In this document: in pieces, positions 1 through 50,100 of the stretch
Position numbering within the stretch: position 1 is the first letter of the stretch
How the letters are laid out: the number at the start of each line of letters is the position of its first letter
Assembly (NCBI GenBank): GCA_951406725.2
Contig: OX597833.1
Span: 11,346,001 to 11,410,000 of the forward strand
Length of the DNA: 64,000 nucleotides
Reading direction: 5' to 3'
Source: Octopus vulgaris
Taxonomy: Eukaryota
Position numbers and translations under genes: made by a program
The notes under the pieces: model-generated
Told to the model about the DNA's origin: nothing
What the model saw: the letters and a program-made list of their open reading frames with translations, nothing else
The model's database searches: none

Positions 1-1000
1 CCAGGGCCGCCGAGAGCGCACCGGACGCCGCCCGAGACGCGGCGCTCTACAGGTACCATATCTGTATCTCCGGACAAACCGATTCCACGGACGCGGTCCT
101 TTGCGAAGAAGAGAGAACTCTTCCCGGGGCTCCCGGCAACGTCTCCGGGCTCGCTTGCGTTGCCGCTGCTTCGCCCGGCCGCCGACTTCGATGATGGACG
201 CGCTGCTAGGAAGAGCACGCCGCGTTCCTGCCGACGGACGGGCACTCTCCGAGTTTGGGTTCGGGAATATTAACCCGATTCCCTTTCGATGCGAGGCCCG
301 CCGCGTACTACGATGAACTGGAAGTTCTTTGTTTACAACGACGGATCCGGCGCCTTTCGTGGAAGCTTTCGCCCGCTTCTTAGGACCGACTGACCCGTGC
401 TCGACCGCCGTTGGCACGGAACCCTTCTCCACTTCGGTCTTCGAAGGTCTCGTTCGAATATTTGCTACTACCAACGAGATCTGCACCCGCGGTTGGCTTC
501 ACCCGGGCTCGCGCCCGCGGCTTCCATGCACGCCGCGGCGCCCTCCTACTCGACCGGGAATCGGAAAGTCGCCTCGCCGGCGTTCGCGCAACCTGTCGCC
601 CGGCCGGTCCGGCATCGGTCGCTCGCTCCAGCGCCATCCATTTTCGGGGCCGGTCGATTCGGCAGGTAAGTTGTTACACACTCCTGAGCGGATTCCGACT
701 TCCGTGGCCACCGTCCTGCTGTCTATATCGACCGACACCCTTTCGGGGATCTAATGGGCGAAGCGTAGGGCACCTTAGCCGGACGTTCGGTTCATCCCAC
801 ATCACCAGTTCTGCTTACCAAAAGTGGCCCACTTGGCACCGTGCATTCGTCGTCGCATAACGGCGGCGGCCTCCGATCGGGAGAGGAGCGGCCCGTTTCG
901 CCCGTTCCGAGTTCGAGAGTAGATCGAGGCCGTCAACGTCCCCGGGGCCTCCAGTCGTTCGCTTTACCGGACGGAATTGCGTGTCGTTCACCCGCTGGCG

Positions 1001-1043
<43 letters not shown>

Positions 1044-1527
1044 CGGCTCGATTGGTCTTTCGCCCCTACACCCGGTTCCGACGATCGATTTGCACGTCAG
1101 AGGCGCTTCGGACTTCCACCAGAGTTTCCTCTGGCTTCGTCCCGACCGGGCGTGGATCGCCATCTTTCGGGTCCCCGGCCGCCTGCTACACCTGAGTCGG
1201 AGCGGGAACGCGCGGACCCGACCCGGGAACGATGCTTCGAAGCGCCGTCCCACCAGAAGCGAGACGGCGACGTCGTGTCACGTTCTCGCTTTCGCTGTGC
1301 CGTCGGAGTTCGCGAAGTGAAAGGCTCCAACGACTCGCAGTCGACTGGGACTCCTCGGTCCGTGTTTCAAGACGGGTCGGGCAGGTTGCCGATGCTCGTC
1401 GCTGACCGGGGGCACCGGGCGGCTTTTCGGGCGGGGTGTCCCGCGACCGCAACGCGCGTCGCCCCCTTGCGAGGGATCAGCGCGGTCGCGGCGCGCGGGC
1501 GGCCGCGTCGCTCGCAGTCTCGGAAGC
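1..1527 (-). rRNA. 28S (LSU) rRNA fragment, roughly D2 to D7 region; 5'-truncated, probably a dispersed copy
   Basis: Reverse complements of universal LSU motifs: GCTATCCTGAGGGAAACTTCGG (~1004-1025), GGTCCGTGTTTCAAGACGGG (~1357-1376), GGGAATATTAACCCGATTCCCTTTCG. GC-rich sequence stops abruptly at ~1527 with no 5' 28S, ITS2 or 5.8S. Confidence 0.9.
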
Positions 1528-1854
1528 TGACAAATCGAGAACAATGTAATAATTTATGCGGTTTTAATCTCACAATTCGGATTCATAAAAGGACAGAAAG
1601 TGCATGAGGGCTTTACCGACAACAACAACAGCAACAACAAAAATAACTTCTATATGCACCATTGCGTTGGCCCTGAATGCGCATCAACAGTTTCCTATCT
1701 AGATTCAGTTCTCGTCTTATAAAAGGTATTAATCATCTACTTCAGAAATATCACAAAATGCACACCACCCAACTAACTATCTGTAGGTAATCATTCATGC
1801 ATGTTGGTGCGTGTGGAGTATTTCTCAGATAAATGACTAAGATATCGGTACGAA

Positions 1855-1910
<56 letters not shown>

Positions 1911-1958
1911 TATATATATATATATTCAAATATATCCATATGCATATACATATTATAT

Positions 1959-2098
1959 AGGCGCAGGAGTGGCTGTGTGGTAAGTAGCATGGTTCCGGGT
2001 TCAGTCCCCACTGCGTGGCATCTGGGGCAGGTGTCTTCTGGGCCGACCAAAGCTTTGTGAGTGGATTTGGTAGACGGAAACTGAAAGAAGCCTGTCGT

Positions 2099-2161
<63 letters not shown>

Positions 2162-2381
2162 ATGTATATGTTTGTTTGTCTGTGTTTGTCCCTCTAGCAT
2201 TGCTTGACAACAGATGCTGGTGTGTTTAAGTCCCCGTCACTTAGCGGTTAGGCAAAAAGAGACTGATAGAATAAGTATTGGGCTTCCAAAGAATAAGTCC
2301 CAGGGTCTAGTTGTTCGACTAAAGGTGGTGCTCCAGCATGGCCGCAGTCAAATGACTGAAACAAGTAAAAGAGTAAAAAAA
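1959..2381 (+). mobile_element. tRNA-derived SINE (octopus-type family) with internal (TA)n
   Basis: Head AGGCGCAGGAGTGGCTGTGTGGTAAG...GGGTTCAGTCCC with Pol III A/B-box-like motifs and a GTAAAAGA-type tail; same family at 3305-3734 and 28535-28700. Confidence 0.85.
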
Positions 2382-3175
2382 TGAGTATATACTTATATAT
2401 ATATATATACGGGTGCGGGCGTATCGGTGTTTCCGCCAGCACCGTTTCACCATCGGTGTTGTTATGTTTACATCCCCGTAACTTAGTGGCCCTGCGTAAG
2501 AAAATGATACAGTAAATACCAGGCTTACAACGAAAATAGACCTTGAGGGAGTTTAGTTCCCTTAAAAACTGGTCCAGGCGGCAGTCTAATGAATGAAACA
2601 GACAAAAAGAAATCTATCTGTCTATGTATGTATGTATATAAGTATGTATGTATGTATGTAATCATCTATCTATCAATACATATATATATATATAAACACA
2701 CACATGCATGAATGCATGCATCCATGCATACATAAATATATATATTCATACATTCATACATACGAAGATACACATACATACATGTGCGTGTATATACGTA
2801 TATATGCAAGTATTCATCTATCTATTAATACACACACGCACACATATACATATATACATGCATACCTACATTTATACATTCATACATGTAAAGATACACT
2901 CACACAAACATATGCTTGCACGTATGTACGTTTGTACATATGTATGTATGTATGTAAGTATATATGTATGTATGTATATATATGTGTGTGTGTGTATATA
3001 TGTGTGTGTGTGTATATATGTGTGTGTATATATGTGTGGGTGGGTGGGAATTGGTAGGTTTTGATTTTCATATTCACATAAAACTTTTCTAATCAGATTA
3101 ACGCTTCTTGTGAAGAATCCAAACCGAACATTAGACTTCATTAGATTAAGTCTTGCGATTACTGTGTATGTGTGC

Positions 3176-3274
<99 letters not shown>

Positions 3275-3304
3275 TGTGTATTTGTTGGTTGAACGAAATA
3301 TTCT

Positions 3305-3734
3305 CACTCTTTTACTCTTTACTCTTTTACTTGTTGCAGTCATTTGACTGCGGCCATGCTAGAGCACCGCCTTTACTCGAGCATATCGACCCCGGGACTT
3401 ATTCCTTGTAAGCCCTGTACTTATTCTATCGATCTCTTATTGCCGAACGGCTAAGTGACGGGGACGTAAACACACAAGCATCGGTTGTCAAGCGATGGTG
3501 GGGGGGACAAACACTGACACACAAACATATGCCCACACATACATATATATATATATATACATATATACATATATTCGACAGGCTTCTTTCAGTTACCGTC
3601 TACCAACTCCACTCAAAAGTCATTGGTCGGCCCGAGGCTACAGCAGAAGACACATGCCCAAGATGCCGAGCAGTGAGACAGAACCCGGAACCATGTGGTT
3701 GGTAAGCAAGCTACTTACCACACAGCCACTCCTG
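3305..3734 (-). mobile_element. tRNA-derived SINE, same family, inserted upstream of exon 1 of gene A
   Basis: Reverse complement of 1959-2381; absent from the paralogous flank at 36143-36186. Confidence 0.85.
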
Positions 3735-4119
3735 AATATTAAAACAGCTTCCCAAGAATAACAAAGAAAATTAAATAACAACATTAGTAAATAAATATAT
3801 CATAATATATCCAGAAACAGGAATCATTTCACTTTACACGTGTCTCTCATTCATCAAAATATTTTGCTAATTATTGTGTGACAATATCAAACCATCTCTT
3901 TCCAATAATTAAACCTGTCAGACAAGTTCACACCCACTTTTACAGTTCCACCAATCGCATTGGTTCTTAAATTTACGATAAGATCTATGCCAGAGCTGGG
4001 TTGTTGTGCGCTCAATAAATACGTGGAATTCAGTTACAGGTCTTCAGCTTAAACCTCGCATCTCGATCTTTTGTTGAAGCCACACGAAGTATCACTTACG
4101 ACCGACAACTGTCACCAGA

Positions 4120-4263
4120 ATGGATTTCGCACAACAGTTCAGGAATATTTCGCAGCGTTATTCCATTTCTTCTCTCATAACTTTTGGGGTTCTTCTCGTT
4201 CTGACGATCGTCAATCTTCATCAAGATTCAAGAATAGGAAAAATGGAAGAGAAATCGAAAACG
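4120..4263 (+). CDS. Gene A exon 1 (48 aa, hydrophobic signal/anchor) of a short-chain-collagen-C4-like protein
   Basis: ATG at 4120, MDFAQQ...FGVLLVLTIV...EEKSKT, then GTAAGT donor at 4264 (phase 0). Near-identical paralog at 36553; phase fits exon 2. Confidence 0.75.
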
Positions 4264-4509
4264 GTAAGTCATGGATTTTGTGTTAATATATGTATGTCTT
4301 TATGTATTTATATATGCATGTATGTATGTATGCATTTACGTATGTATGTATTAATATGTGGATGTATGTACGTACCGATGGATGGATGGATGGATGTAAG
4401 GATGTATGCATGAACCATGTACATATGTTCCTATACAGCACACACACACGTACGATCCATCACACACGTATACACATAAAATAACACAGGCGCACACACC
4501 TAAACATAC

Positions 4510-4558
<49 letters not shown>

Positions 4559-4704
4559 GTTTAAATATTTGTTGTGCAAGATTTTTTATGTGAAGTCGTG
4601 TGTTGAAACAGATATTGTTATATTTCGGAATGGTCATATTGACATATTTGGTGTTATTTTGCTTCAGTGTTATTTATTTTTTACATTAATCTTAATCTTA
4701 TTTC

Positions 4705-4749
4705 GGCCAGAGTTCTTTCGTCACACTCCTGTGACCGCATCAGTGGTCC
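4705..4749 (-). ncRNA. Minimal type I hammerhead-like motif (probable Penelope terminal repeat)
   Basis: Minus strand CCA-CUGAUGCG-GUCACA-GGAG-UGUGAC-GAAA-GAAC-UC-UGG: stem I CCA/UGG, 6-bp stem II, one core deviation (A9 to C). Confidence 0.55.
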
Positions 4750-5159
4750 TTTGATTTCTTCTTTCTTATTTGTGTCTCTCCTTACTAACCGTAAGCCTTT
4801 TTGTATTTCTATTGTATGTCTTCATTTGCGCATGCTTATATCTCTATGTGCGTCTATGTTTATATAGTGTGTGTATGTGGGGGGATGCCTGTAATATTTC
4901 TATCTTCTGTTTATATACGTTCATGTAATTTGTATTTTGTTTTGTTGTTGTTGTTTTTGTTTATTCTTATTTTGTTCATGTGTTTACATCTACTTATTAT
5001 TATCATTACATATGCTTGTATGTATGTATGTATGTATAACAACAATACTAGTAATAACAATAATAAATCGAATTGAAAAAAAAATATATATATACATATA
5101 TATACACACACATATATATATACATACATATATATATATACATTTATATATATATATAT

Positions 5160-6958
5160 ATAGTTATTTATTTATATTTGTTTATTTATCTGTGTATTTA
5201 TTATGTTTTCTGGATCCTCTATCGTCACATGTTGTGGTGTGTTAGTGCTCCATTCTAGTTTTCTATTCAGGCTACGTTTATTTTCTATTATGTGTGTAGC
5301 TTCTGTAATTTGTCTAATTGTTGCATCTGTTCTATGTGTGGACAATATTTTAATTTGTATGTTATTGATTGATCCCCCGTGTTTCTGTTCGGCGTGTTGG
5401 TACAGAATCGATGAGCTTTTACCTTCCTTGAGTTGTCTCCAATGTCCATTTACCCGCTCTCCTATGCTTCTTGCCGTTTCCCCTACGTATGTCGTCTTGT
5501 TACTGCATCGTCCCTCTATACATCTTATACTATAGACTACATTCCTGGCTTTACAGTTTGTTTGTGGGCTAAATCTACATACAGTACAGTACTTATCCGT
5601 ACTGGGGGTTCTACTAAAAGGATAGGTTCTACCAATTATAGATTTGATAGGGTTGCCTGGCTTTTCAACAACGTTAATTCTTAGCTTCAGTTTGTCTAGG
5701 GTCCTTCTAAAGCGGTACGCCAGTTCACCTCCAGGGGTGGTGTCAACGAACATGACACTCTGGTATTTATGGTTATCATACCATAAGTTGGCCTTCCCTA
5801 TTTTCTTTTTGTCCTTTCTATAGTGTTCCATGACTTGTTCCTATAGAGTGGGCAAATCCCATTCCTATCATTACATAATATATTATCAAATTTCTTCATG
5901 GCTCCTTTGTATACTCTGATCCTTTCTTTATGGATGTAACCTGAGAACTGCATGCGGTGAATGAAATATCGTATGTGTTTCTTTAACTCTGTGGGCTCGC
6001 ACATGCGTGACACATTTCTCATTATTCTGAAGAGGTCTGCCATCAAAATATTGAATTTGGCATTGTCCGCAATGGCTGAGTTCCGGTGGATCAAGTATTT
6101 TGAGGCCATAGGTTTGGCATAGTATGAATGAAGGATTTGGGTTTTATTATTCACAATTTCTAGCCAGAGTTCAGTGTCTAGCACTGGTAGTCTATGGTTG
6201 GGGTGTTTAGTGGGGTAGTCTATTGTAACCTTAATACTCTGGAGGATGGAGTTATGTATTTGCTGGATACTCTCCATAGTATTAGTTTCTATTTCTCTTT
6301 CAAGAGTACTCTCTTGTGGAGGTGCCTTTACCACTATGTTGATATCATCAACATAGCGAGAGTACATGTTTACGAGTATGGAGTTCTGTGTTAGGCGTTC
6401 TTTAAGCCTTCTGTCCCACCATACCATGGAAAGGTTAGCCACATCACCAGCGATACTAACGCCGATAGCTGCCCCCTCGTCCTAGGCATATATTTTATTA
6501 TTAAACTTAAACGTGTGGCCTTTTAGGGTAACTCTTATACTAGCTCCTAGTGCATGTGCGATCATTTTCTTTACCTGTTGGACATTTGCGGGGCTCCGTA
6601 TGGCTCTGGTCCATCCGCGCCATCTTTCTATATGTGTCTTCCTAGCCATAGACGTAATTGTGGGCGGTCTACCTCTTAAACATCTACTGGGGCAGAAACT
6701 ACTAAGATTATGCTTATCTAAGTATTCATTATTACATGTCAGTCTAAGTAGGAGGCCCAGTTCTTCTGTGTTGACATTACGGAACTCCACCTGGCTCTCG
6801 TTGATCATCTCCACGCACTTCTCCACCGCAAAATCTACGTCGATCGATGGGTATAGGGATACCACATCCATGCTACCCACCATACATCCTGTCAGGTCAT
6901 AAGTGTTGTTACAGTCATTGATCCTGCTGAGGAGATCTTATGTGCTGTCACAAACATC
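5160..6958 (-). mobile_element. Penelope-like element (RT + GIY-YIG endonuclease), 5'-truncated and degenerate
   Basis: ORFs 6482-6883 (SMDVVSLYPSI), 5798-6442 (RYVDDI), 5172-5831 (VVYSIRC...YVGETARSIGERVNGH...EATHI...LN); interrupted by stops and a frameshift. Confidence 0.9.
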
Positions 6959-8705
6959 AATTTTATATTTACCTGGTAACTTCGAATTATCAATCGCTGA
7001 TAACCCAGCCTCGGCCTGTTTCATAATTTCAATCCCACGACTTCTGTCTGACAATGTTCCAGCGTATACTCGTCCCAAGCTCTTGACGGGCTCTTCCTTG
7101 ACTGTTGGAATGCTTTCTTCAGATATTCGAAACTTAAATTCTTTCTGCACTCCCTTAACAAATGTCAGACTACGCGACTTTTTTGCTCTAAATCGCATCC
7201 TTGACCACCTTACAAGTTCGTCTAATCTCAAGAGGGCATTCTGCATGATTTTTTCATCTGTAGCTAGAAGTGTCACGTCATCCATGAAGGCTTTCTTAGG
7301 CGATTGTACCTGGGCGATTTGTTCCGAAAAATCTACACCTTCCGAAATCAACTCCATGACTAAGATAAACCACGTGACAGATATCGTACAGCCAGCAGCA
7401 ATGCCAACTTCCAATCGGTGCCAATTTGTTGTAAAATTTCCAGTCGTAAACCTCATTTCGAAACTGTCATAGTACATCCTCATTATTTTGATCACTTTGT
7501 CAGGAATGTGGAAGTGGTCCATGGCTGTTATTAGTAATTTGTGTAAATATGCCACTGTTCTCCTCGACAGAATTCCCATAAAGATCTTGCCTTGTAGGTA
7601 TCCTTGATATGAGCATCCAATTCTTCTTTAGTGCACGATAAAGTGCCACTCTTCGGTTCAGTGAATAGCTTCTTAGTAAACCCGTACGGGTCCTTCAGAA
7701 ACTGCCCCCGAGTCCTTTTACTTTCTTTTCGACGCTCATATCGGCGGATATGTCGTTGCACATAACGACATTTCCTCTTCAAATCGTTATACAGCAGCGC
7801 AAGGCCAGGTTTCTCATCTAGTGCAGCACATCTCCATCGCTTTCTTAAGTCGGACTTTTCCTTCCTCAACTGCTGCATTTTTCTGATCCTCCTGCTTGGT
7901 CCACACTTTCCTTTCTCTAGCCGGATATTCTCTTTTATTCCAAATAAATCTTTTCCTATATCGTATACTGAGCTTGATAATTTGCCCAGTTTCTCCACTG
8001 TAGAGTCTGTCATTTTATAAAGAGCCCGACAAACCTTGTTTTCAAACTCTTTATATTTCACTTTCTCATTAGCAGCAGGCCACAAAACCCTCGGTTTCCT
8101 CTGAGTATTATCCGATGCACCAGTTTCATGACTTGTAGTTTCATCACGCGAAGAGGTCTCTGCTGTAGCATTTATCGATCCGCTGTGGTTTGAGTCCGGG
8201 GATGATTTACCACGTGTTTTACGATCTGACGATCCACACTGCTCTGTCCTCTTCTCACAAGTCTTTCCCTGATGTATCTTCAAGCTTCTCACAGTTGCAA
8301 AGGTTCTACAGCACAGCTTGCATCCAAAGTTGTTTGCATTTCGTTCGCTGTTCGAATGAATAACCGCACTCATTTCCAAGGTCATTTCCGTGCTGACTGG
8401 GTTTGATTGATTCTCGATTCTCCCCTCTCGGTCGATCGTGGGGCTGTCATATCCATTCATATCTGTTACAATATATTACAAAGGCGAGGATCGTAAGTCG
8501 CAGCCTCCACCAGTCTTTCCTGGTGTCGATAGTCTTTCCTATTGTCCGCTCGTCTTTCCGAGCAGTCCTCTTGTCTTTCCAAGATGCCTAACCGTCTTTC
8601 CGGTTTGTCAGTGGTTCCCTACCACAAGGTCTTAGATGTCTTGCAAACAACTTGCACATGCAAGTGCTACCAGTTAAAAGCTCCGTATACCGGAAGCTAG
8701 CAAGT
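6959..8705 (-). mobile_element. HERO-like (RLE-class) non-LTR retrotransposon, copy 2: 5' UTR, zinc finger and internally deleted RT; 3'-truncated
   Basis: CKLCCRTF...LKIHQGKTC finger, WPAAN and FLKDPYGFTKKL motifs, GIAAGCTIS...AFMDDVT...FRAKKSRSL RT motifs; internal deletions near 7594 and 7543. Confidence 0.8.
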
Positions 8706-8998
8706 GTATGGGGTCATCAGGAGAGATTGCGCGCCGTTTCGGGGCCTACCTCTCGACGGCATCAATGCGCACCGGCCCGCCTCACTGATATGAGGCCCCG
8801 CTTGCTAGATCAGCTGGTTATGAAGAACTCAATATACTTCTAGCCATCACTCATCGTCTCTTTTTAACCAAATCCAGTGGCTAGCCTTCTCCACTGTAGA
8901 TTGGATATCAGTCATGATGGTATTGACTTTACGATGAGTTAGGCCTAGCGATAACAACAGTCGTCTCACGCTGTGTCCAACAAACCCTCTACATCCAA
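8706..8998 (-). mobile_element. HERO-like copy 1, C-terminal end of the RLE ORF plus 3' UTR
   Basis: Minus strand from 8996 translates GCRGFVGHSVRRLLLSLGL...EKASHWIWLKR, continuing the PIEVG motif at ~14095. Confidence 0.8.
8714..8799 (-). ncRNA. Rearranged (non-circularly permuted) hammerhead ribozyme candidate
   Basis: GCCGUC/GAAACGGC (stem III with GUC site), GAGAGGU/AUCUCUC-CUGAUGA (stem I with core), GGGGCCU/AGGCCCC-GAAA (stem II); all core nucleotides present, in non-canonical order. Confidence 0.6.
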
Positions 8999-11900
8999 TT
9001 TCTTTATTAGCCACATGGGCCCAAACATAGAGGGGGACAATACAGCCTGATTGGGGTCAGACACTCAATGATTATATGACTTTTAAAATTTTACAAAATA
9101 TAATGAAATCGAATGAAATCGAATGAGATACAAAAAGGACGAAATACACACATGAGATGAAGCAGAGAGATGGCTTACGCTCCGACCCCACGAGCCCCAT
9201 TCTCCTACTGAAACATTTGTATGCAGACTTATGACATGTTCATGAGGAATCTTTCATTCCCAGCACCCTCGCAACATGCAACCATCTTTCTTTGAACATT
9301 TTCTTTGACAGGCATCTTCTTTCCAGCCTCACCTTCCTTTTAAGGAGGAAGATAAAATATCTCACCAACCCGAGACCGGAGATGAGGTTGCCTGTCGCCA
9401 AACCTTTCATTCGCGACTTCCATACCACCTCTTTCGCTATTGCTACTACTGCGAGAAAACATTGCTTATCTTCTTTCGTGAGGAAATCCGGCGGGTCAAT
9501 TTTTACAATTGACTCAGACGACAGCTGTACTCTTCCCGAACCTGACAGCAGATGTTCTGCATAAACCCACACTTCAGACACTCCCGAACACTGAACAATA
9601 GCGTGCAGGCCAGTTTCCCTATCCCGTCCGCATCTTGGACAGTCGGCAGTGGTGGTTCGACCGTGTCCTGCGAGCTTATCCCGAACGGGTAAGGCTCCTC
9701 GGTAACATTGCCAGGCCAGGGATTTTTGGAAATTATCCAAACACCCCGGCCCAAACGTCCTTCGGAACAGACTGTCTAACTAGTTATCTCCGAGACTTAG
9801 GGTTTCCTCTAGGGTATCGTCGTTCCCAGCCTCTACCAACCTGCTATAGAAAAATGTGGTGGTACCAAAACCGCTAGCATTACCCGAGCGATGGAACTGT
9901 AGGAGTGCTTTACGGCACTCCGTAAACCATGTACCCAACCTCGTTCTACGAAGGAACCAGCTTTCTTGTCCACTAAAACTTGTGAACCTGGGAAACATCC
10001 GTTTCGCGAGCGGAGACCACACCTGTTAACCATTCAGGAGTAGCCAGAGATACCTGAACCTCAGCGCATGTTTGCACATCAACAGCCAAGGCATCCCCAG
10101 TCCCCCATTCAACGGCTTTTGGCAGCAGATAGAACGCCTCACTAGAGGAGTGGTGCCCTTCCACAAAAAGCGGAAGATCTGCTTCTCCAGCTTGCTCAAC
10201 CACGAACCGGGACAGGGCACGACGGTTAGGCGGTAAATGATGACCGATGCGATAAACACATTGGCCACCTCCGCCCTCCCTTTCAAGGATAGCCACCGCC
10301 AAGACCAGGTCTTGACTATGCAGGTCACCTTGCTCAATACCTCTGCCCAGTTCTTTTCTACCTGGAGGTATGGTCTAAACCATACCCCTAGCAGCTTAAC
10401 CGGGCCCTCCGTCCAACGTCCCACGACGCTATCCAAAGGCATCGACTTGCCCCTCCAGGTGCCGAGTTGCAAGCCGACTGACTTTTCCCGGTTAATCTTT
10501 GCTCCTGCCACCGTCTCGTAAACCTTAATTGTTTCACGTACCCTCTGTAGGTGTTCCATCTTGGTTACAAGAATGGTGATGTCATCCGCATATGCTGAAA
10601 CCGACTCTCCAACAGCCGGCCCCCTCGGGATGCCGCTCAACTTTTGCAGTAACGGCTCTAGGGCCATCACATACAAAAGTGGCGAAAGCGGACATCCTTG
10701 GCGAACCGAGCGCTTCATAGAGAACGGCCTAGAAAGAAATCCGTTCACCCGAACGATCGAATCGATGTTGTCGTATAATTGGATTATCCACCTAAAGAAG
10801 CCAAGACCCAGCCCGAACTGTGCTAACACGGACACCAGGTATCGTTAGTCAACCCTACCGAATGCTTTTGACTGGTCTAAATGGACCAAAATCACTACCA
10901 GAATCACTACCAAACCCTTCTAAGGTATAGCGTATAAGATGGAGATTGTCCTGAATGCTTCTGCCGGGGACGGCACAGGTTTTTGCCTTGCCGATCAGAG
11001 TATTCGCGACCTGCCCCAATCTTTTTGCTAGTACCTTGGCCAAAATCTTCACCTCTGCGTTTAACAGAGTGATGGGCCTAAAGTTGTCTATCTTATCTCC
11101 CTTGTTTGGGTCCTTCCTGACCACAGTCACCACTCCCCTGCGTACAGATCTGGGAATCGACCCATTCTACTGCCAGTTATCGTAAACCCCGGCCAGAATT
11201 TGCCCATACAAGTCTGGCATACTTTTGTACATTTCATAAGGCAAACCACCAAGTCCCGGCGCCCTACCAGCTTTACAGTTCGTTATAGCCTCTCTCACCT
11301 CCTGAGGTGTTATCGGACCCTCACAGCACTCAGCATCCTGCCCCGAGAGACGCGGCAGCCCGGCAAGGAAGTCCGAAAGGTCCAACCTACCATCCGGTCC
11401 ATTGCCCCTCCCGAAAAGCTGTACAAAGTGCTCCTGAAAAGCCTGACACATCTCATCGGGTTCGTTCACAATCTCGCCTTGTAGATTCTCCACAGATCGA
11501 ATTGTAGAATCATTTCCACGTTGGGTTTCCATCACCCGAGCCCATCCAGCGGCATTGATCCCCTCACTCCCCATTGCACGAAGTCTAGCCCTGATAATGC
11601 ATCCCATGTGTTTGGCCTCGAGGTGCTGGTTTAATTCCAGTCTCTTAGCCTTCGCCTGAGCAGCACTACCAGTCAACCCTGCTTCCTCTAATTCCTTAAC
11701 CAGTTCTAGTTCCCTCTTACGCTCTCTAGCCACTAAACCTATGCTATATCTAACAGACTCAAATTTAATGGCTCTTTTGAGGGCGTACCACCATTTATTA
11801 TTAATGATGGTACCAGTTAAAGCCCTCTGTATCAGTAACTTAATCCGGCTTCTGTACTCTTCGTTCGCCAAATGGGACTTATTGAGTTTCTAGTAACCGG

Positions 11901-14084
11901 ATCCTCTACTCTGTAACTTATCTAGGTTCAGCTTACAAGTGACCAATTTATGATCACTGTAGCTGACCAAGTGGAACTGTGGACACTTAGCTATGGATCT
12001 ATCTGTTTCTCTAATTAGAATCCTATTTTAATAGGACTTAAAAGACCCGTCACCACTTAACCATGTCCACATTGGGGTGTTCGGGAATTCAAGTCTGTAT
12101 GGATCTACTAGCTGAAAGCGACTTAGTAGATCCCGGAAACCTGCATTAGGTATTCTATTTGGGTTCGAGCCAACATTATCCACGCGCGCATCTTGAATAA
12201 CATTAAAGTCCCCTAACAAAACTAATGGGTACGCCGTACCAAGAAACTTCTCTAGGTCTCGGAAATACTCAGACTGACCATTGTAGGGGGCGTAAATTGC
12301 CACCAGCCTGATTTTCTTACCGCAACTTAAAGTCAGGTCGAAGACGACCAGCCTACCCTCTGGGTCACAAAAAATTAACTTCTTCTCTGAAACCCGGTTT
12401 CTTTTTAGTAGGACCAACACCCCCACACCCACCCGCCGGTGGACTGGAGAAATAAATTTCTCGTATCCGTCCAGGAGTGGGAGCAGTCCTCTTGATCCCT
12501 TTAACCGGGTTTCAGTAGCAACAATGACATCCAAATTATGTGACATGACGTCGTTTAAGAAGCGGCCTCGCTTCCATCCCGTCGTCAGGCCACGCACATT
12601 TAAACATCCAACGTGAACTGCCATAAGTCTTACCTCAATTTCTTGTGTCTTCGCTAAAAGGCGGAGGTGGGTCCGCCTCTTTTTCTTTTTCTCGGGCTCG
12701 TGGAGTCGTTTTAATTAAGCCAACATCACTCCGATGGTCATTTGCTAGAACGTTGTAAGACGTTCTGTCTCCGTGGTAGACTTCGAAACCGTCTTTAACG
12801 TTTTTGCATCCAGTTCTTTTTAGTTTTTTAATTTGTATTTGGCTCATTAATCTCGAGTTTGAGGTTCGAACCGCCATATATAGAACTTCTTTCTCTCGTA
12901 TTTCTTTTGTTTTTGATTTTTTGGCTTTTTCTTGCCTTCTTTGAGTTTGCATTTTTGCCAATGATTTAACATTTCTCTTTAATTTCCTTTGGCTACCAGT
13001 TCTCTTCCATTCCGTCTCTTCTTTATTTCCGCTCTCATTTTCTTCTTCTGTGCTTTCTTCTTCTGTTTTCCCATTCTCTGTAGTTTCATCTTCCGAGTCT
13101 TCTTCAATGTTGTTCTCCTCTTTTTCTTTTTCTTCACCACTCTTGCATTCGGACCTAACATGGCCCTTCTTTCCACATTTAAAACATCTGGGTTTTCTAC
13201 ATTCCACCATGACTACTAACTTCGTACCCATTGTATCTATGACCTCTGGAATTTTTTCTAGGGTCATAGGCTCTGCTTGGATCAGCATTTTTATTGTTTG
13301 GCCAAGCCAGACTTTGTCTTCTGTTACTTCCGCAGAAAGCAGTGTGATTTCTTCCTCTAGGTCATACAGTACTGCCGCTACTAGCCATTCGGCGTCCGCC
13401 TCCGGTGGTACACAGCTTATCTTTATTCGGGAGGTTCTCCTCCCCATATAAAATGGCAACAGTACTACCTCATCCGTTCGCAGAGGCTCCACAGAATACT
13501 TTTGCGCCTGTTCCACTGTTGACATCCTCACTTCAACAGCTGCATATCTTTTTCCTCTGGCCAAATATGTGATGTTATTCCAAATTGGCCTTAAATATTT
13601 TTCTACACTTCTGTCATTGACATTTCTTTTCAACATTATATGTTTTGAAAATTACAGTCCTTTCGAGTGCATCTTTAATGATGCTATGAGTAGGGACCAC
13701 CTTTATTTCGGTCCCTTCTTTTGTTAACAGCTCTCGGTTTGCCTTCAAATTGGTTGTATCAATTTTCCTTGAGTTTCCTCCGGCGGCAGCCGCAAAGCTC
13801 CTTATTGGCTCTTCTAATATCCTTCTGCTCACTACAGAATCCTTACTGGTACTTGGCACTGGAGATACACTCTCCCTACGCGCGACAGTACCTTCCATTG
13901 TGTAAAAACACTAATAAAGAAAGTAAAACGTTTCCCCGCAAGGGGGAATTAAAACAAATTTTGCTTCAAAACAAGCAATAAATAGTCCCTTTTTTCAAAT
14001 TATAATAATCGAATTTAACTGTAACAGACACAAAATTTTAACATTGTACACTGCATAATAAGCGACATTATTAAGAAACCTGCG
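8999..14084 (-). mobile_element. Near full-length Tx1/L1-group LINE, degenerate (ORF1 with CCHC knuckle; ORF2 APE-RT-zf)
   Basis: ORF1 13898-12635 (CFKCGKKGHVRSEC). ORF2: CLNVRGL, LLGDFN, FRPITLLN, VRQGCPLSPLLY, SAYADD, CPRC...ETGLHAIVQC. Several stops/frameshifts; imperfect 11-bp TSD at 8988-8998 and 14085-14095. Confidence 0.9.
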
Positions 14085-14612
14085 TCTCCATCCGACTTCG
14101 ATAGGAAAATGTTCCACTTTCCAGCCTGCGTCTTCACATTCCTCAAGGTTTTCATAACGGTTCAATTTTCGAGCCCGAGCGGCGTCCATATTATCTTCAT
14201 GAGGAACTGTTAGCTCGACTATATTTACAACTTTTTTCACACCACATCAAAATATCTGTATTTTTCGAAACTGGGATGGGAAAGAAAACCTGGCACCCAG
14301 GTAAATCTGCAGTTACCTCTCAATAGCCGTTCCACTTTTCATTTCTCTCAGGATGTTTCTTGATCTTTTTCTTGAAACGGATCCGCTGACCTGGTCGCAC
14401 GATGGTAATGAAATCTCTTGATGGTACTTTTAACGGTTTTTCCTCAGTGTTGTTGAGGTGAATTTGGTTCTTTATAGCATTGAAGATAACCTTAAGGACC
14501 AAGTTGTGCCTCCATGTGTACCTGTTCAATGCTAATGAACAGTTGGAAAGAATACGTGTTAGTGTACCGACCTTTCTACATTTGCAGATGTCAATCTCTA
14601 AGACGTTCCATC
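14085..14612 (-). mobile_element. HERO-like copy 1, CCHC plus restriction-like endonuclease region (5'-truncated)
   Basis: C..C.KVGTL.RILSNC..AL.RYTWRHNLVL and IVELTVPHEDN...K..RY..L...GWKV...PIEVG. Confidence 0.85.
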
Positions 14613-15142
14613 TTTGAAACAGGTGATATGGGAAAGTGCAACATTGACAACAAAACATTTGTAGAGTAAATGCAGGGCTAATTCGACTAAGCAACATGCT
14701 ATGCGTCCGTTTGGAGTGTTTCAGGCCCTAACCTGTCATGCAAAATTGAATGTGGGGTTTGTGTGTTTTTTGAACGCACGGAAAATCTGTCAGTGGATAT
14801 ACTCTCCTTTGCTGCAGTGTGCGCTGTGTCTAACACGACCCATCATCGGAAATTTTGACACCTCACGTCGGGTTTTTTGTCCTACATCACTCATAGAGTA
14901 AATTTGGAGGAACTGTGGTTGTTCATTCGCGGGTACCAGAGAGCCAATGAGGGTATAGACTTGCCCTTGAACTTTGACGTCGGCGTAAATTCATGTTTAT
15001 CTATCTTCTTAGATTCACCAAACGATGTCATTTGAAATGCAGAGTTGTATTGTCTGATATTGTTCAGAAAATCCTTTGACTGGATTGAAGTGCATTCTAG
15101 AAGATTCCTATGGGGTTGAGATGGTAGTGTTGGCAATGATAC
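14613..15142 (-). mobile_element. Helitron relic (Rep N-terminal region); 3' end lost
   Basis: FLNNIRQYNSAFQMTSFG motif; paralog of 58162-58745, which keeps the hairpin-CTAG end. Confidence 0.75.
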
Positions 15143-15243
15143 CTGTCCGAAAATGTTGTCATCTATTGCATTGTTTTAAGTTCTAAACGATAATAAATAC
15201 CCTGAAGTTCTATTTATATGATGCTATTTCTATTTTTTCACAG

Positions 15244-15295
15244 AACCGTTTCATCTCCAAGAAATCTCTCGACGATAAACCTGATGACACACCAA
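15244..15295 (+). CDS. Gene A exon 2a (52 nt, NRFISKKSLDDKPDDTP)
   Basis: TTTTTTCACAG acceptor, GTAAG donor, phase 0 to 1; identical to gene B exon 2. Confidence 0.7.
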
Positions 15296-15479
15296 GTAAG
15301 AACTAATTTTATAGCTAAAGTCATTAACCCGTGTCTCCTTAAGTCATGGTTTATAATTTCACCAACTTTGAATTAGTTCCACATTACTATCCACATGTCC
15401 ACAATAGTATATACTAAGACACTTGCCTGAATTTATTTCGAAATATATTCTACTTTACAATAATTCCCTTAATAAAATC

Positions 15480-17135
15480 TTACTCTAATATACAATGCCA
15501 TTTATTGTGTATATGAGTATATATGCGGTGCTATACATGTCGTCTACAAATAACAGTCGACCGATCACGTAGAGATGAATTGGGATACCTCTACCACAAT
15601 GGCTGAGCATATTCAACCAGATCACAAAAAAGAATGTGAGAAGGGGCACTAACAATGCACACTTCAACTAAGTGAAACCTTCAAGTTGAAAAATTTCGAC
15701 TTTTACATAAATACAATCATTTCAACCTCCATATGGCAACCAGTATTTGCCCATTAAACTCACCTTCCTGGTAAACCATCCACAACATTCCCCAGGACAC
15801 ATGATCGTGTGCCTTTTCGTGGTTTACAGCGTCTAAACCTTGGAAATGCATCAAATTTTGCTGGAAGATCTATCTTTGAACGACTATCTGGTCAGGTGTA
15901 CCGCGTGGCGGACGGTAATCTTGGGCGCGACAATTTCCCTACATATCTTTTCCTGACATCAAGTGTAGACTTTTCTATAATTAGAACACACTCTTTGATC
16001 TTTGTTTTAAAAAATTGTGATTGTCACTCCATATTACCATTGCCTTGGTGTTTTTTCCAGAGGTCCCATCCACCTAGCATACATGGGTCACTCAGAGAAT
16101 ACCATCTGTATTTAAGGTTTCTAAAATATCAAGCCGAACGTGCTTATCACCAGCAGCTTTATCACTTTTAAGTGATTTTAGCTCAAATAAGCGTTCAACC
16201 GAAGAAGAACCTGCTGAATAAAATAATACAATCACGAATCCATTTCGAGGTCCAACTTCATTCAGGCGGGTCACTCTCAATTTGGATGCAAAAGTCTCCA
16301 CATTTTTGTTTCTGATCCCAGCATCCACTGCGGCTTCCAACTGTATTCTGTAAGTCGAATTGGACTTACCAATTTCAAGTGTTCGGTAAACTGTAGGAAT
16401 TTTCAGGGTTTTAGACATTTAGGTAGTGACGAGTTGATAACTCCACCCTTCCTCTTACACAAACGTTCAGCAAAGAGTGAAAGAGGACCGAACTCAATCA
16501 GAAACCTCTGTCACCAAGTATTTCTATGCCAGGCACCCTTATAAATATCCCTGTCTTAAAATAATATCTATACCATAGAGTGGAGAGTGTGTATCCTGCA
16601 CAGAAGGCTGCTATGATCTCTCCATTAAGTTCACTGACGACATTCCTTCCAATCAATCCTTCTCACGGTTATCAGTACCAAGGTGTGCACTGAAGTCTCC
16701 TTGCAGGACAAATGACTTTACCCCAAATATATCTAAAGCTGAGGTGAATTTGCTTAGGAAGGATTTGTATTTGACCTCGCTGTTTGCTGCATATACTTAC
16801 AGCAGCCACAGTGGTCCTTCATATTCAGCCCTAGCTTCAAGAAGCGAACCCTCACACCTAGTAGGTTTCACTCAATAATACAATCGGAAAGCTGGGGATT
16901 GAGAGTATCCTAATCCCACCTGTGCAGACATTGCTGGCACCACAGTTGCGTAGTGGAGATTCAAGCCTATATCCAAGTGTACGCTATCGGAGAAAGGAAA
17001 TTTTGTAGAGGAGACACCGATTATATCTTACAGGCAGATTATATCTAACAATTTTGACGTTTTAATTCTCAATTATTAAAGGTTGTTCCCTTCTTGATCT
17101 GCTTTGTCGTCCTGAGACCGTCAATATTGTGCTCC
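15480..17135 (-). mobile_element. Old RTE-like LINE relic in intron 2 (copy a)
   Basis: Degenerate APE (GDF.AH.G-like) and RT (LLFVDD) motifs; close paralog of 56045-57880. Confidence 0.6.
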
Positions 17136-17200
17136 CATCAAAAACGGTAAGTCATGGATTTTGTGTTAACATATGTATGTCTGTATGCATGTATTTATTT
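17136..17200 (+). pseudogene. Remnant of a third exon 1 (last ~11 nt plus splice donor and intron start)
   Basis: ATCAAAAACG|GTAAGTCATGGATTTTGTGTTAA matches 4254-4286. Confidence 0.75.
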
Positions 17201-17359
17201 AGGTATGTATGTGTGCGTGTGTGTAAATATGTGTGTGTGCGTGTGTGTAAATATGTGTGTATGTATTATGTATGTGTGAGTGTGTGTAAATATGTGTGTA
17301 TGTATTATGTATGTGTGCGTGTGTGTAAATATGTGTGTGTGTATGGATTGATAGATTTG

Positions 17360-18388
<1,029 letters not shown>

Positions 18389-18409
18389 GCAAGATAAGAA
18401 AGTTTATTT

Positions 18410-18775
18410 TCGGCACTTGATGCTTTGGGAACCAGACAAAAATTGCTGCAGCTCGGCTGGCATGTGTTACTCCATCCCTCCATATTTGCAAGATATTGCA
18501 CCTTCGGATTTCCACTTATTCAGGCCTATGTAGAATAGTGTCAATGGTAAAAATTTCAATTCCTTGAATGACGTAAAAAGATACCTCGATGAATTCTTTG
18601 CCATGAAACCACCTCAATTCTGAAAAGAGGGTATTTTCAAGTTAAAGGAAAGATGGAGAAGCATAGTGCAACAAAATGTTTCATATTTGGTTGATTAGAA
18701 ATGCAATGGCAAGTATTTATTGACCCTTTATTTTCCTTTAAAAATCGGCACGAACTTTCCAGGCAACCCAAAATA
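18410..18775 (+). mobile_element. Mariner transposon 3' fragment with terminal inverted repeat
   Basis: Degenerate [14 protein letters not shown] motif (~18481-18523), transposase C-terminus and GCACGAACTTTCCAGGCAACCCAAAATA end. Confidence 0.75.
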
Positions 18776-18831
18776 AATACATATAAATATATGTATATAT
18801 GTATACATATATATATATATATATATATATC

Positions 18832-20325
18832 TCTTATTATAAAAGGCAGATTTTATCTGCCTCCCTTTGGGAGTTATACAAATCTACAATATAGGATTTC
18901 TTCAATTACAATTTACCTAGCAGTTTTGAGAGTACAATGCATCGCGTCATGCCAGGTCCAGTTTTTAAAATTTAAACTCCAATTAAGCAAAATTTACAGA
19001 AAACTCACATTCTGGTGTGTGTGTCAAATGCTTTTCTTAGTCTGGTTTACAGCACACGCAAACGCACACACACAGTGGGCAAGGAATAAAATGAAAGTAA
19101 TTCACTTACTGTAGTGAGTGATTCTTTCACTCTGCCTCCCACTTCCTTGTATACACACATAGAAAAAACTTTTATTTTTTTACATAAGTAATGAGAGCGA
19201 AAGAGACTAAGAGAAAGCGATTGTATGACGAGGGAAGTTCCTTTGAAGTTACCGTGCATGGGACTCATTGATGTACATGTGTGTGTGTGTGTGTTTGATG
19301 GAGTGTGGGAGACAGACAGTATGTTGTGTAAGTGAAGTGCTTCTGTTAGTGTGTGTGAAGAGACAGAGAGAGTAATGTGTGAAAGAGAGAGATAACTGAA
19401 ATTTTTTACTCGGTTTATGTGTATATGTATGTATGCATGTATGTGTGTGTGTGTGTATGTATGTGTGTGTGTATGTATGTATTTATATATAAAAGAAAGG
19501 TTGTGTGTCAGTCTACTCCGATTTAGATTCCTAACTACTCCCACATTTTGCGATGCAGTTTAACCAAAACCGGGTATCTTATAGTCGTGATTCATATCGA
19601 GCCCTTCTGGGTATTAGCGCGCGTCTACGATGAGTCTATGATTTTACAAATAATTTACCATCATTTTTTTCCATTTTAATGCATATTTTTTAAAATAAAC
19701 GGAAGTAACTCTCAAACTTCACACCAATATGCGTGCTCATATGCGACGTAATATCACATCACCAGCATTTCCTCACACCCTCCTTGCACTTGGCGAAGGC
19801 AAAATACCAGGGGATGAAAATGGTAATATTGCCATCGATTCCATTTGTACCATTGTTAAGACGCCTTCTGATCTCAGAGATGCAGTGTTCCCAGATTTAC
19901 AAGCTAATTATCAGAATATGGATTGGATTGGCAAAAAGGCTATACTGGCCCCGAGGAATAAAACTGTTCACCATATTAATGATGAAATGCTAAAACTCAT
20001 TCCTGGGGAAGTCGATGTATATCAGTCTATCGATACAACTCCTGACCCAGAGGACGTCATCAACTATCCAATAGAGGTACTCAATTGCTTTGAGCACCCC
20101 GGACTACCACCACACTTTCTCAAACTTAAAGTTAGTGCCCCTATAATGCTCATCAGAAATTTGGTTCCCCCAAAACAATGCAATGGCACACGTTTGGCGT
20201 TAAGTCCTTATCTCCCACCGTAAGCTTATTTCAATATTTGCCTGAATAATCATCATAATTCAGTGCAATCATTAACAGTACTTTCAAGCAATTCAGCCCC
20301 GAGCAACGCCGGGCAATTCTGCTAG
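18832..20325 (+). mobile_element. Composite non-autonomous Helitron carrying a Pif1 helicase fragment
   Basis: 5' TC start, second 5'-end module at ~19481, ORF 19729-20223 (AILAPRN...[19 protein letters not shown]...CNGTRL), 3' CCCGAGCAACGCCGGG hairpin + CTAG. Confidence 0.85.
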
Positions 20326-39919: not shown

Positions 39920-42900
39920 CAACCAACCAACAAACCAGTCATGACAAATCGATCCACCACCAACCCAAACCAGCCAACCAGGTGACCCAGGTGACCCACC
40001 GACCAACCAGCCAGCCAGCAACCAACCAACAAACCAGTCATGACAAATCGATCCACCACCAACCGACAAACCAGCCAACCAGGTGACCCACCGACCAACC
40101 AGCCAACCAGCAACCAACCGACAAACCAGCCAACCAGGTGACCCACCGACCAACCAGCCAGCCAGCAACCAACCAACAAACCAGTCATGACCAATCGATC
40201 CACCACCAACCGACAAACCAGCAAACCAGGTGACCCACCGACCAACCAGCCAACCAGCAACCAACCGACAAACCAGCCAACTTGCAGACCCACCGACCAA
40301 CCAGCCAGCCAGCCACCAACCGACAAACCGGCCAACCTGGTGACCCACCGACCAACCAGCCAACCAGCAACCAACCAACAAACCAGTCATGACCAACCGA
40401 TCCACTACCAACCGACAAACCAGCCAACCAGGTGTCCCACCGACCAACCAGCCAGCCAGCAACCAGCCAACAAACCAGTCATGACAAATCGATCCACCAC
40501 CAACCGAAAAACCAGCCAACCTGGTGACCCTCCGACCAACCAGCCAGCCAGCAACCAACCGACAAACCAGCCAACCAGGCGACCCACCGACCAACCAGCC
40601 AGCCAGCAACCAACCGACAAAGCAGCAAACCATGTGACCCACCGACCAACCAGCCAACCAGCAACCAACCGACAAACCAGCCAACTAGGTGACCCACCGA
40701 CCAACCAGCCAACCAGCAACCAACCAACAAAGCAGCCAACCAGGTGACCCACCGACCAACCAGCCAGCCAGCAACCAACCGACAAAGCAGCCAACCAGGT
40801 GACCCACCGACCAACCAGCCAACCAGCAACCAACCAACAAACCAGTCATGACCAACCGATCCACTACCAACCGACAAACCAACCAACCAGCCAGCCAGCA
40901 ACCAGCCAACAAACCAGTCATGACAAATCGATCCACCACCAACCGACAAACCAGCCAACCAGGTGACCCACCGACCAACCAGCCAACCAGCAACCAACCG
41001 ACAAACCAGCCAACCAGGTGACCCACCGACCAACCAGCCAACCAGCAACCAACAAACAAACCAGTCATGACCAATCGATCCACTACCAACCGACAAACCA
41101 GCCAACCAGGTGACCCACCGACCAACCAGGTGACCCACCGACCAACCAGCCAACCAGCAACCAACCAACAAACCAGTCATGACCAATCGATCCACTACCA
41201 ACCGACAAACCAGCCAACCAGGTGACCCACCGACCAACCAGCCAACCAGCAACCAACCAACAAACCAGTCATGACAAATCGATCCACCACCAACCGACAA
41301 ACCAGCTAACCAGGTGTCCCACCTACCAACCAGCCAACCAGCAACCAACCGACAAACCAGCCAACCAGGTGACCCACCGACCAACCAGCCAGCCAGCCAG
41401 CAACCAACCAACAAACCAGTCATGACCAATCGATCCACCACCAACCGACAAACCAGCAAACCAAGTGAGCCACCGACCAACTAGCCAACCAGCAACCAAC
41501 CAACAAACCAGTCATGACAAATCGATCCACCACCAACCGACAAAGCAGCCAACCAGGTGACCCACCGACCAACCAGCCAACCAGCAACCAACCGACAAAC
41601 CAGCCAACCAGGTGACCCACAGACCAACCAGCCAGCCAGCAACCAACCGACAATGCAGCCAACGAGGTGACCCACCGACCAACCAGCCAACCAGAAACCA
41701 ACAAACAAACCAGTCATGACCAATCGATCCACTACCAAACGAAAAACCAGCCAACCAGGTGACCCACCGACCAACCAGCCAACCAGCAACCAACCAACAA
41801 ACCAGCCAACCAGGTGACCCACCGACCAACCAGCCAGCCAGCAACCAACCAACAAACCAGTCATGACCAATCGATCCACCACCAACCGACAAACCAGCAA
41901 ACCAGGTGACCCACCGACCAACCAGCCAGCCAGCAACCAACCGACAAAGCAGCCAACCAGGTGACCCACCGACCAACCAGCCAACCAGCAACCAACCGAC
42001 AAACCAGCCAACCTGCAGACCCACCGACCAACCAGCCAACCAGCAACCAACCAACAAACCAGTCATGACCAATCGATCCACTACCAACCGAAAAACCAGC
42101 CAACCAGGTGACCCACCGACCAACCAGCCAGCCAGCAACCAACCGACAAACCAGCCAACTAGGTGACCCACCGACCAACCAGCCAGCCAGCAACCAACCG
42201 ACAAACCAGCCAACCTGGTGACCCACCGACCAACCAGCCAACCAGCAACCAACCAACAAACCAGCCAACCTGGTGACCCACAGACCAACCAGCCAACCAG
42301 CAACCAACCGACAAACCAGCCAACTAGGTGACCCACCGACCAACCAGCCAGCAAGCAACCAACCGACAAACCAGCCAACCTGGTGACCCACCAACCAGCC
42401 AACCAACCAACAACCCAGTCATGAACAAGTCATGACCAACCGATCCACTACCAACCGACAAACCAGCCAACCAGGTGTCCCACCGACCAACCAGCCAGCC
42501 AGCAACCAGCCAACAAACCAGTCATGACAAATCGATCCACAACCAACCGACAAACCAGCCAACCTGGTGACCCTCCGACCAACCAGCCAGCCATCAACCA
42601 ACCGACAAACCAGCCAACCAGGTGACCCACCGACCAACCAGCCAGCCAGCAACCAACCGACAAAGCAGCCAACCATGTGACCCACCGACCAACCAGCCAA
42701 CCAGCAACCAACCGACAAACCAGCCAACTAGGTGACCCACCGACCAACCAGCCAGCCAGCAACCAACCGACAAACCAGCCAACCAGGTGACCCACCGACC
42801 AACCAGCCATCCAGGAACCAACCGACAAACCAGCAAACCTGGTGACCCACCGACCAACCAGCCAACCAGCAACCAACCAACAAACCAGTCATGACCAACC

Positions 42901-48900: not shown

Positions 48901-50100
48901 CGATCCACCACCAACCGACAAACCAGCCAACCAGGTGACCCACCGACCAACCAGCCAGCCAGCAAACAACCGACAAACCAGTCATGAATAACCGATCAAC
49001 TACCAACCGACAAACCAGCCTACCAGGTGACCCACCGACCAACCAGCCAGCCAGCAACCAACCAACAAACCAGCCAACCAGGTGACCCACCGACCAACCA
49101 GCCAGCCAGCAACCAACCAAACAAACCAGTCATGACAAATCGATCCACCACCAACCGACAAACCAGCCAACCAGGTGACCCACCGACCAACCAGCCAGCC
49201 AGCAACCAACAAACAAACCAGTCATGACAAATCGATCCACCACCAACCGACAAACCAGCCAACCAGGTGACCCACCGACCAACCAGCCAGCCAGCAACCA
49301 ACCAACAAACCAGTCATGAATAATCGATCCACTACCAACCGACAAACCAGCCAACCAGGTGACCCACTGACCAAGCAGCCAGCCAGCAACCAACCGACAA
49401 ACCAGCCAACCAGGTGACCCACCGACCAACCAGCCAGCCAGCAACCAACAAACAAACCAGTCATGACAAATCGATCCACCACCAACCGACAAACCAGCCA
49501 ACCTGGTGACCCACCGACCAACCAGCCAGCCAGCAACCAACCGACAAACCAGCCAACCCAGGTGACCCACTGACCAACCAGCCAGCCAGCAACCAACCAA
49601 CAAACCAGTCATGACCAATCGATCCACCACCAACCGACAAACCAGCCAACCTGGTGACCCACCGACCAACCAGCCAACCAGCAACCAACCAACAAACCAG
49701 TCATAAACAACCGATCCACGTCCAACCAACAGACCAGCCAACCAGGCGACCCACCGACCAACCAGCCAGCCAGCAACCAACTGACAAACCAGCCAACCTG
49801 GTGACCCACCGACCAACCAGCCAACCAGCAACCAACCAACAAACCAGTCATGACCAATCGATCCACCACCAACCGAAAAACCAGCCAACCAGGTGACCCA
49901 CCGACCAACCAGCCAGCCAGCAACCAACCGACAAACCAGCCAACCAGGTGACCCACCGACCAACCAGCCAACCAGCAACCAACCAACAAACCAGACATGA
50001 CCAATCGATCCACCACCAACCGACAAACCAGCCAACCTGGTGACCCACCGACCAACCAGCCAGCCAGCAACCAACCGACAAAGCAGCCAACCAGCCAACA
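39920..50100. repeat. ~10-kb complex satellite of interspersed 55-bp and 92-bp units
   Basis: 55-mer GGTGACCCACCGACCAACCAGCCAACCAGCAACCAACCGACAAACCAGCCAACCA, with or without a 37-bp insert containing GTCATGACCAATCGATCCAC. Confidence 0.97.

Follow-up and report, generated by a model that had tools for sequence, protein, structure and literature searches.

How does a hammerhead-like motif with its strands in an unfamiliar order come to sit in the tail of a retrotransposon, is it likely to cut RNA, and what would the cut be for? These questions are raised by a 64,000-nt stretch of the Octopus vulgaris genome (contig OX597833.1, positions 11,346,001 to 11,410,000; here called the window), whose minus strand carries such a motif at 8799-8714, in the 3' untranslated region (UTR) of a HERO-like long interspersed nuclear element (LINE). 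A preliminary description of this DNA had read the site as a rearranged hammerhead ribozyme at the junction of two elements, and the letters it quoted are all present. The motif is a conserved, covarying hammerhead-type fold of HERO-like 3' UTRs and not a chance arrangement. Self-cleavage by intact copies is predicted from the comparison of these sequences, and is highly probable.

The evidence comes from relatives of the element: 73 metagenome loci and 20 further loci of the source genome (2.8 Gb), the latter bringing to light a second HERO-like family. The descriptor used consists of three crossing stems around a U-N site, plus GAAA and a CUGANGA core; it imposes the stem minima, U16, the 3-8 pair and the core words, and leaves H17 free. 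It matches 33 of 45 metagenome 3' segments, against three of 2,250 dinucleotide shuffles and none of 45 reverse complements of these segments. Four of the 12 misses have the motif further downstream (L074, L111, L119, L135), two fit by eye with one mismatch (L068, L085), and four are on contigs that stop 59-325 nt past the stop codon; in the other two (L073, L075) no motif was found. A weak minus-strand match in L071 is probably false. Within the 64-kb window the descriptor finds a single site, the one described here.

Do the stems covary? An alignment was made with MAFFT of 31 mutually related sequences, i.e. 29 of the 33 matches and one copy from each of the two source-genome families (near-identical L100, L114 and L122 and the irregular L131 were left out); it was trimmed at the descriptor anchors and not fitted to the structure. 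Of the alignment cells at proposed pairs, 94.5% pair, and two-sided changes are found in 11 of the 13 proposed pairs. The covariation score is 0.727, compared with 0.184 after shuffling and at most 0.161 in slid registers, and the top 11 of 435 column pairs by corrected mutual information are all proposed pairs. Stems I, II and III covary, and the conservation expected in the preliminary description is borne out. Signatures of the chemistry are present as well. H17 is C in 14 sequences, U in nine, A in eight and G in none, with GUC (14), GUU (9), GUA (7) and AUA (1) as the triplets. The core word is CUGANGA in 29 and UUGACAA in two; U3-A8 replaces C3-G8 in two, a swap reported for other hammerheads (PMC4209133). 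At 10.1-11.1, 30 sequences have G-C and one has G-U, and 11-17 nt separate H17 from GAAA.

How is the fold wired? Read 5' to 3', the strands are P0, hairpin, II, interaction helix, III, cut, I, II', GAAA, III', interaction helix', I', core and P0' (Table 1). The stems cross in the order II, III, I, II', III', I', so that the early assignment to a hammerhead outside types I, II and III, whose three-way junction is nested with the circular order C-G-S, was right, as was the break seen in the chain between A9 and stem II: the base after A9 pairs with the base before GAAA in none of the 31 sequences. The strand after A9 pairs with the strand upstream of the motif, forming an extra helix, P0, and the last base of a hairpin abuts G10.1. 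A P0-equivalent helix is found in all 31 descriptor fits, with 3-15 contiguous bp and varied pair types. On unconstrained co-folding the hairpin is flush with P0 in 28 of them and at most 1 nt off in two more. The interaction helix has 3-10 bp, at least 6 bp in 28 of 31; it is a fitted helix without a separate control. In L131 and L135, the relatives furthest removed, the triplet is AUA and ~25 nt are inserted between this helix and stem III. By analogy with other hammerheads, the cut is predicted between 8755 (C17) and 8754 on the minus strand, the position originally proposed.

The pairing first drawn for the window copy holds for stem I, the core of stem III, GAAA and CUGAUGA, and fails for the 5' strand of stem II, which is 8779-8774 in the family. 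Of the bases chosen instead, 8799-8796 pair in the family with four C's directly after CUGAUGA, as part of P0. This mis-pairing results from a private G-to-C change at 8779, which is C in the window copy and G in all 29 other aligned genomic copies; position 8727 is U in all 29, and the pairing is altered accordingly. The former register can form in the window copy only by losing P0 and the hairpin, and is not that of the family. UGCGC/GCGCA, once taken as an extension of stem III, forms a helix of its own that corresponds to the interaction helix between stems I and II in Eckert et al. With a C-C mismatch at 10.1-11.1 and a broken open reading frame (ORF), the window copy is likely crippled, a dead example of a live family feature. 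Nested folding of its motif gives z = 0.03, which is uninformative since all three stems cross. Rfam reports no hammerhead in window 1-20000 or in 12 related loci.

Is such wiring known? Eckert et al. (2023) described six block orders, with CUGANGA assumed to be inseparable from its flanking stem strands, and validated a non-circularly permuted hammerhead, type SGC (HRIMA-1 and a variant; PMC10085705); the preliminary description was correct that such hammerheads had been published. The HERO motif resembles type SGC in its cyclic strand order, with blocks S, G and C in that sequence, in a short stem I-stem II linker before GAAA and in the interaction helix, which is in the same place as helix I of type-SGC ribozymes. 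It differs in being circularly permuted: a short linker connects what are the 5' and 3' ends in SGC, and the opening is instead between A9 and G10.1; P0 and the hairpin, added there, split block C. In most of the HRIMA-1 rows examined a single U is inserted after A9, at the very step where the HERO motif is opened. An intact block C, with the stem II strand directly after CUGANGA, occurs in none of the 31 sequences, the strand forming P0 instead. Canonical SGC pairing is rejected, and the HERO motif is therefore not a member of SGC; by analogy, it likely works like one. SGC was found in metatranscriptome contigs and not in genomes of known organisms, and apart from one bacterial GCS candidate the RNAs of that study are from metatranscriptomes or metagenomes, with no mention of HERO or non-LTR (non-long terminal repeat) elements in its main text. 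The HERO motif, in contrast, sits in genomic retrotransposons, and its cleavage is a prediction. The pseudoknot (PK) hammerhead of Zhan et al. (2024), also a natural one, has likewise gained a helix and a different wiring around stem II while its chemistry is the same (PMC11300833). There a pseudoknot replaces helix II, A9-G12 and G10.1-C11.1 keep a short stem, and, unlike in the HERO motif, the added helix is not at the A9-G10.1 step.

Other retroelements carry ribozymes. Penelope-like elements, with hammerheads in pseudo-LTRs, and non-LTR retrozymes also have the ribozyme in a terminal repeat and form head-to-tail partial tandems (PMC4209133; bioRxiv 10.64898/2026.07.22.740005). Their hammerheads are type I or minimal and their endonuclease is GIY-YIG or absent, whereas the HERO fold is multiply pseudoknotted and its host is a LINE with a restriction-like endonuclease (RLE). 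R2 and L1Tc share with HERO a self-cleaving RNA (here predicted) in a non-LTR element, but theirs are ribozymes of a different class, similar to that of hepatitis delta virus (HDV), and are at the 5' end (PMC6765202); the HERO motif is in the 3' UTR, with no copy end at the cut.

What is the host element? An intact sister copy, L055, has a unit of 3,738 nt with a single ORF (P0001, 1175 amino acids) that encodes a zinc finger, a reverse transcriptase (RT; RVT_1) and then, identified by eye, a CCHC and a PD..E endonuclease motif. The best solved-structure matches of P0001 are R2 proteins. The traits of the R2 (RLE) group are present: a single ORF, RT followed by CCHC and PD-(D/E)XK, fixed 3' ends and variable 5' truncation. 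R2 has been placed in the same group as Hero, and HERO has been described as lacking a specific target site; the insertion flanks found here are mutually unrelated, some of them TA repeats, which fits this lack. There is no consistent target-site duplication across 13 loci. The C-terminal region is 36-38% identical to proteins of Takifugu, Branchiostoma and Cirrhinus, with which the motif-bearing loci interleave in a tree that has neither an outgroup nor a named HERO sequence. HERO was presumably named from fugu and lancelet, going by the names of the elements. Membership of the family in Hero is likely on this comparison. No relatives were found among viral contigs. In the source genome the family is young and high in copy number: the two halves on either side of the predicted cut are matched exactly 788 and 728 times.

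The second family of this genome is older (L137-L144, L148, L149, L156). It has its own version of the motif with a GUA triplet, TATA-like and E-box-like words upstream of the motif and, by eye, a 3' end ~110 nt past its site; L149 is a partial tandem.

Did two elements meet tail to head in the window, as was initially thought? The locus is one insertion with an upstream partial repeat, since 14614-14085 and 9002-8635 together correspond to the final 890 nt of the unit, with 8634-6959 corresponding to the head. The two parts of the repeat are separated by an unrelated LINE of the apurinic/apyrimidinic endonuclease (APE) type, which we take to be L1/Tx1-like; unit positions 3371-3385 are duplicated, being present on both of its flanks. 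Other copies of the family terminate near the window-equivalent of 8637-8631.

Where, then, do copies start and end relative to the cut? In the first 30 exact matches on contig C1, the 3' end is +114 to +125 nt past the predicted cut in 29 copies and +98 in one, and none of the 30 has its 5' end at the cut. All 22 examined copies that reach the head boundary run on into tail sequence, one by only 6 nt; eight others are truncated 35-93 nt inside the head, and a further one has an inverted 5' end. The tail-head junction is exact in 16 places genome-wide, and some 3' ends extend a few bases into it. Among 19 upstream repeats, 17 cross the predicted cut, reaching up to 1,855 nt past it, and none starts within 3 nt of it. 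The longest is 1,975 nt, and repeats up to that length are in the youngest copies. The earlier proposal that cleavage yields linear unit-length templates does not survive these numbers: with no start at the site (0/30 and 0/19) and ends 98-125 nt downstream, no copy end maps to the cut, and a linear cut-to-cut template is rejected. Therefore, either the cut unit is re-ligated or uncut RNA is the template.

The two repeats of a locus share a history. Locus-private variants common to both repeats and absent from the rest of the panel number 17, in eight of 16 tandem loci, and between the upstream repeat of L187 and its own downstream repeat there are differences at 2 of 965 sites, compared with at least 11 for any other. 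These variants speak against independent insertions, at heads, of family members picked at random. The ribozyme motif is present in both terminal repeats of a locus. Beyond the junction, ~135 nt downstream of the predicted cut, comes an ORF without stops from its beginning; its first Met is residue 61. Nine of the 33 metagenome segments with the motif have the start of an ORF after it, a join that repeat assembly can also create. The sequencing-run data are assembled contigs whose labelling as RNA is conjectural, and they show neither RNA ends nor circle versus tandem; one contig of run X9 spans the tail-head junction and shows neither a transcript nor a circle.

What might the ribozyme do? 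The reading towards which we lean, with somewhat more than even confidence, is that it cuts the element RNA and joins it up again as a circle, which would then be the template for copying. A transcript running through a partial-tandem locus would be cut at the upstream and the downstream ribozyme, and the 3.74-kb monomer would be closed by the ribozyme or by a host ligase. Four helices spanning the cut would hold the ends together, and this spanning would favour re-joining. The RT would then start internally, ~120 nt past the joint, and copy across it. Internal priming on a template that extends further downstream is known for R2. More than one round on the circle would sometimes rebuild a locus with two ribozymes. 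An uncut linear RNA of a tandem locus has no means of restoring the upstream repeat, and a nicked monomer would be expected to give stops at the cut. A circle, ligated and internally primed, would account for the constancy of the 3' end, the exactness of the junction, the read-through and the variants common to both repeats, and would give the ribozyme a reason to be conserved. Complete copies carry at their start a stump of their own tail, of variable length and attached at one fixed junction, and the circle would account for this too. A circular RNA template with more-than-unit copying was proposed for Penelope-like elements by Cervera and de la Peña (PMC4209133).

Several observations weigh against the circular template. 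Upstream repeats do not differ in length from copies with an ordinary truncation (median reach beyond the site 248 and 204 nt; Kolmogorov-Smirnov p = 0.85), which constant processivity on a circle does not predict, so that a further assumption is required, for instance that RNase H attacks, or strands are displaced, during the second pass. Copies with two full units were not seen, the longest upstream repeat falling short at the length given above. The own downstream repeat ranks first or tied first in similarity in only eight of 16 loci, a ranking that later mutation of both repeats might explain. The literature gave no experimentally tested hammerhead with helices between A9 and G10.1. The stem minima, U16 and the 3-8 pair come from the descriptor itself, and the 31 sequences are relatives of one another. 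Cleavage, ligation and the circular RNA are all predictions from assembled contigs.

Could the cut serve translation instead? An upstream cut would free the element RNA from a read-through transcript, with an uncapped 5' end for translation, and uncut tandem RNAs or template jumps would supply the template. The position of the cut relative to the long open frame, the report that self-cleavage can induce cap-independent translation (PMC13725137) and the precedent of the R2 HDV-like ribozyme (PMC6765202) speak for such mRNA processing. We consider it unlikely, as linear uncut templates can only shorten the upstream repeat from one generation to the next, and this repeat is up to 1,975 nt long in the youngest copies; the same cut in the downstream copy would take away the priming region; and jumps across a nick would be expected to produce copies that stop at the site, of which none was seen. 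Alternatively, the ribozyme may act as a brake that deprives most transcripts of their final 120 nt, in which copying begins, with protein-protected RNAs escaping and tandems arising separately, by local re-insertion or template switching. All 3' ends observed are indeed downstream of the site, the similar length distributions agree with copying being initiated a second time independently, and in Clec2 genes a 3' UTR hammerhead is known to remove the polyadenylation signal. But without cis-targeting the private variants common to both repeats go unexplained, as do the exact junction and the absence of copies that stop at the head boundary, and a brake of this kind appears improbable.

The fold might also have no catalytic role and be kept as a binding site of the element's protein, like the structured 3' UTR of R2. 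LINE proteins usually bind their template at the place where this motif is found; moreover, insertions read straight through the site and the A9-G10.1 link is broken. Yet the NUH rule and the exchange of C3-G8 for U3-A8 are what selection on chemistry predicts, and binding does not obviously predict them, which makes a purely structural role quite improbable. As to a chance match to hammerhead words in a G+C-rich UTR, with which the nested-folding score and the silence of Rfam would agree, its probability is practically nil: the conservation and covariation of the fold refute it.

Table 1. Features of the window. Positions are those of the window; unit positions refer to L055.
Feature	Positions	Strand	Basis
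Whole predicted ribozyme fold, between outer closing helices	8697..8808	-	Descriptor and folding
Extra helix P0, 5' strand (outer 8808-8801, inner 8799-8796)	8796..8808	-	Pairs with 8704-8697 and 8713-8710
Hairpin abutting P0 (its 5' side) and G10.1 (its 3' side)	8780..8795	-	Unconstrained co-folding
Stem II, 5' strand; 8779 is position 10.1	8774..8779	-	Pairs with 8746-8741 in the family
Interaction helix of stems I/II, 5' strand	8767..8773	-	Pairs with 8732-8728 and flank
Stem III, 5' strand, and GUC triplet	8755..8760	-	8760-8756 pairs with 8737-8733
Stem I, 5' strand	8748..8754	-	Pairs with 8727-8721
Block G: stem II 3' strand, GAAA (8740-8737), stem III 3' strand	8733..8746	-	Descriptor, covariation
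Stem I, 3' strand, and CUGAUGA core (8720-8714)	8714..8727	-	Descriptor, covariation
Element tail (ORF end, 3' UTR with motif), 3' part of upstream partial repeat	8635..9002	-	97% identical to L055 unit 3371-3738
5' part of upstream partial repeat	14085..14614	-	Unit 2848-3385
LINE inserted into upstream repeat	9003..14084	-	Pfam zf-CCHC, Exo_endo_phos, RVT_1, zf-RVT
HERO-like head: 5' UTR, zinc finger, RT start; internal deletions	6959..8634	-	Pfam and match to L055 unit
Penelope-like element inserted into HERO-like head, cutting it off at 6959	6958-5200	-	RT and GIY-YIG-like motif by eye; no Pfam match
Eukaryotic large-subunit rRNA fragment	1-1933	-	Rfam RF02543

Some further observations concern the window and its relatives. 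The nested-element region of the window has an inverted near-duplicate, 99% identical and ~80 kb off (L063, G000:C20 near 11.43 Mb, G000 being the source genome). At window 40000-50000 there are ~10 kb of extreme strand skew (AT ~0.75, GC ~-0.5), probably a simple satellite. Repeated GGAAAGAC-like words are found in 5' UTRs just beyond the tail-head junction, in window 8600-8500 (minus strand) and in distant relatives (L069, L080, L092, L100, L101, L104, L105, L130); they are possibly protein-binding or initiation signals. Pairs of tRNA-like RNA polymerase III A-box and B-box sequences are present in 3' segments (L085:2497, L130:1932, L133:1256), upstream of the motif in L085 and L130. These are the only three such pairs in 550 kb scanned, and a possible role is that of internal promoter for the downstream unit of the tandem. 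Neither ARAGORN nor Rfam calls them, and ARAGORN finds tRNA-like pieces upstream of the motif in none of 13 loci. The 3' ends of six copies (L158, L169, L172, L175, L177, L185) run into TA microsatellites, matching AT-rich bases of the priming site, which suggests pairing of template and target. A young copy, L195 (G000:C11 near 84.63 Mb), has as its 5' part an inverted fold-back of ~1.8 kb, beside a second partial copy.

What is new here, and what would it mean? In the literature searched, from which subscription papers and Repbase notes were absent, no ribozyme is reported in HERO elements and no hammerhead with helices between A9 and G10.1. The full proposition is that a whole clade of autonomous R2-group LINEs replicates via a circular RNA of 3.7 kb that codes for protein and is produced by a hammerhead of new topology, one in which a coaxial pair of helices brings the catalytic core together over the break in the backbone and both cut ends are clamped, as befits a cutter-ligase. 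As a whole it remains tentative, and we put its chances a little short of even. If true, these LINEs would have no true 5' end. The motif adds a hammerhead wiring beyond the six block orders thought possible, one that standard models miss, and gives non-circularly permuted hammerheads a place among genomic retrotransposons, where one genome holds hundreds of copies. As the family is young and has intact ORFs, it would allow a direct test of the circular RNA templates long proposed for autonomous retrotransposons. As R2-group elements are being engineered as gene-insertion tools, internal priming on a circular template may also be of practical interest.
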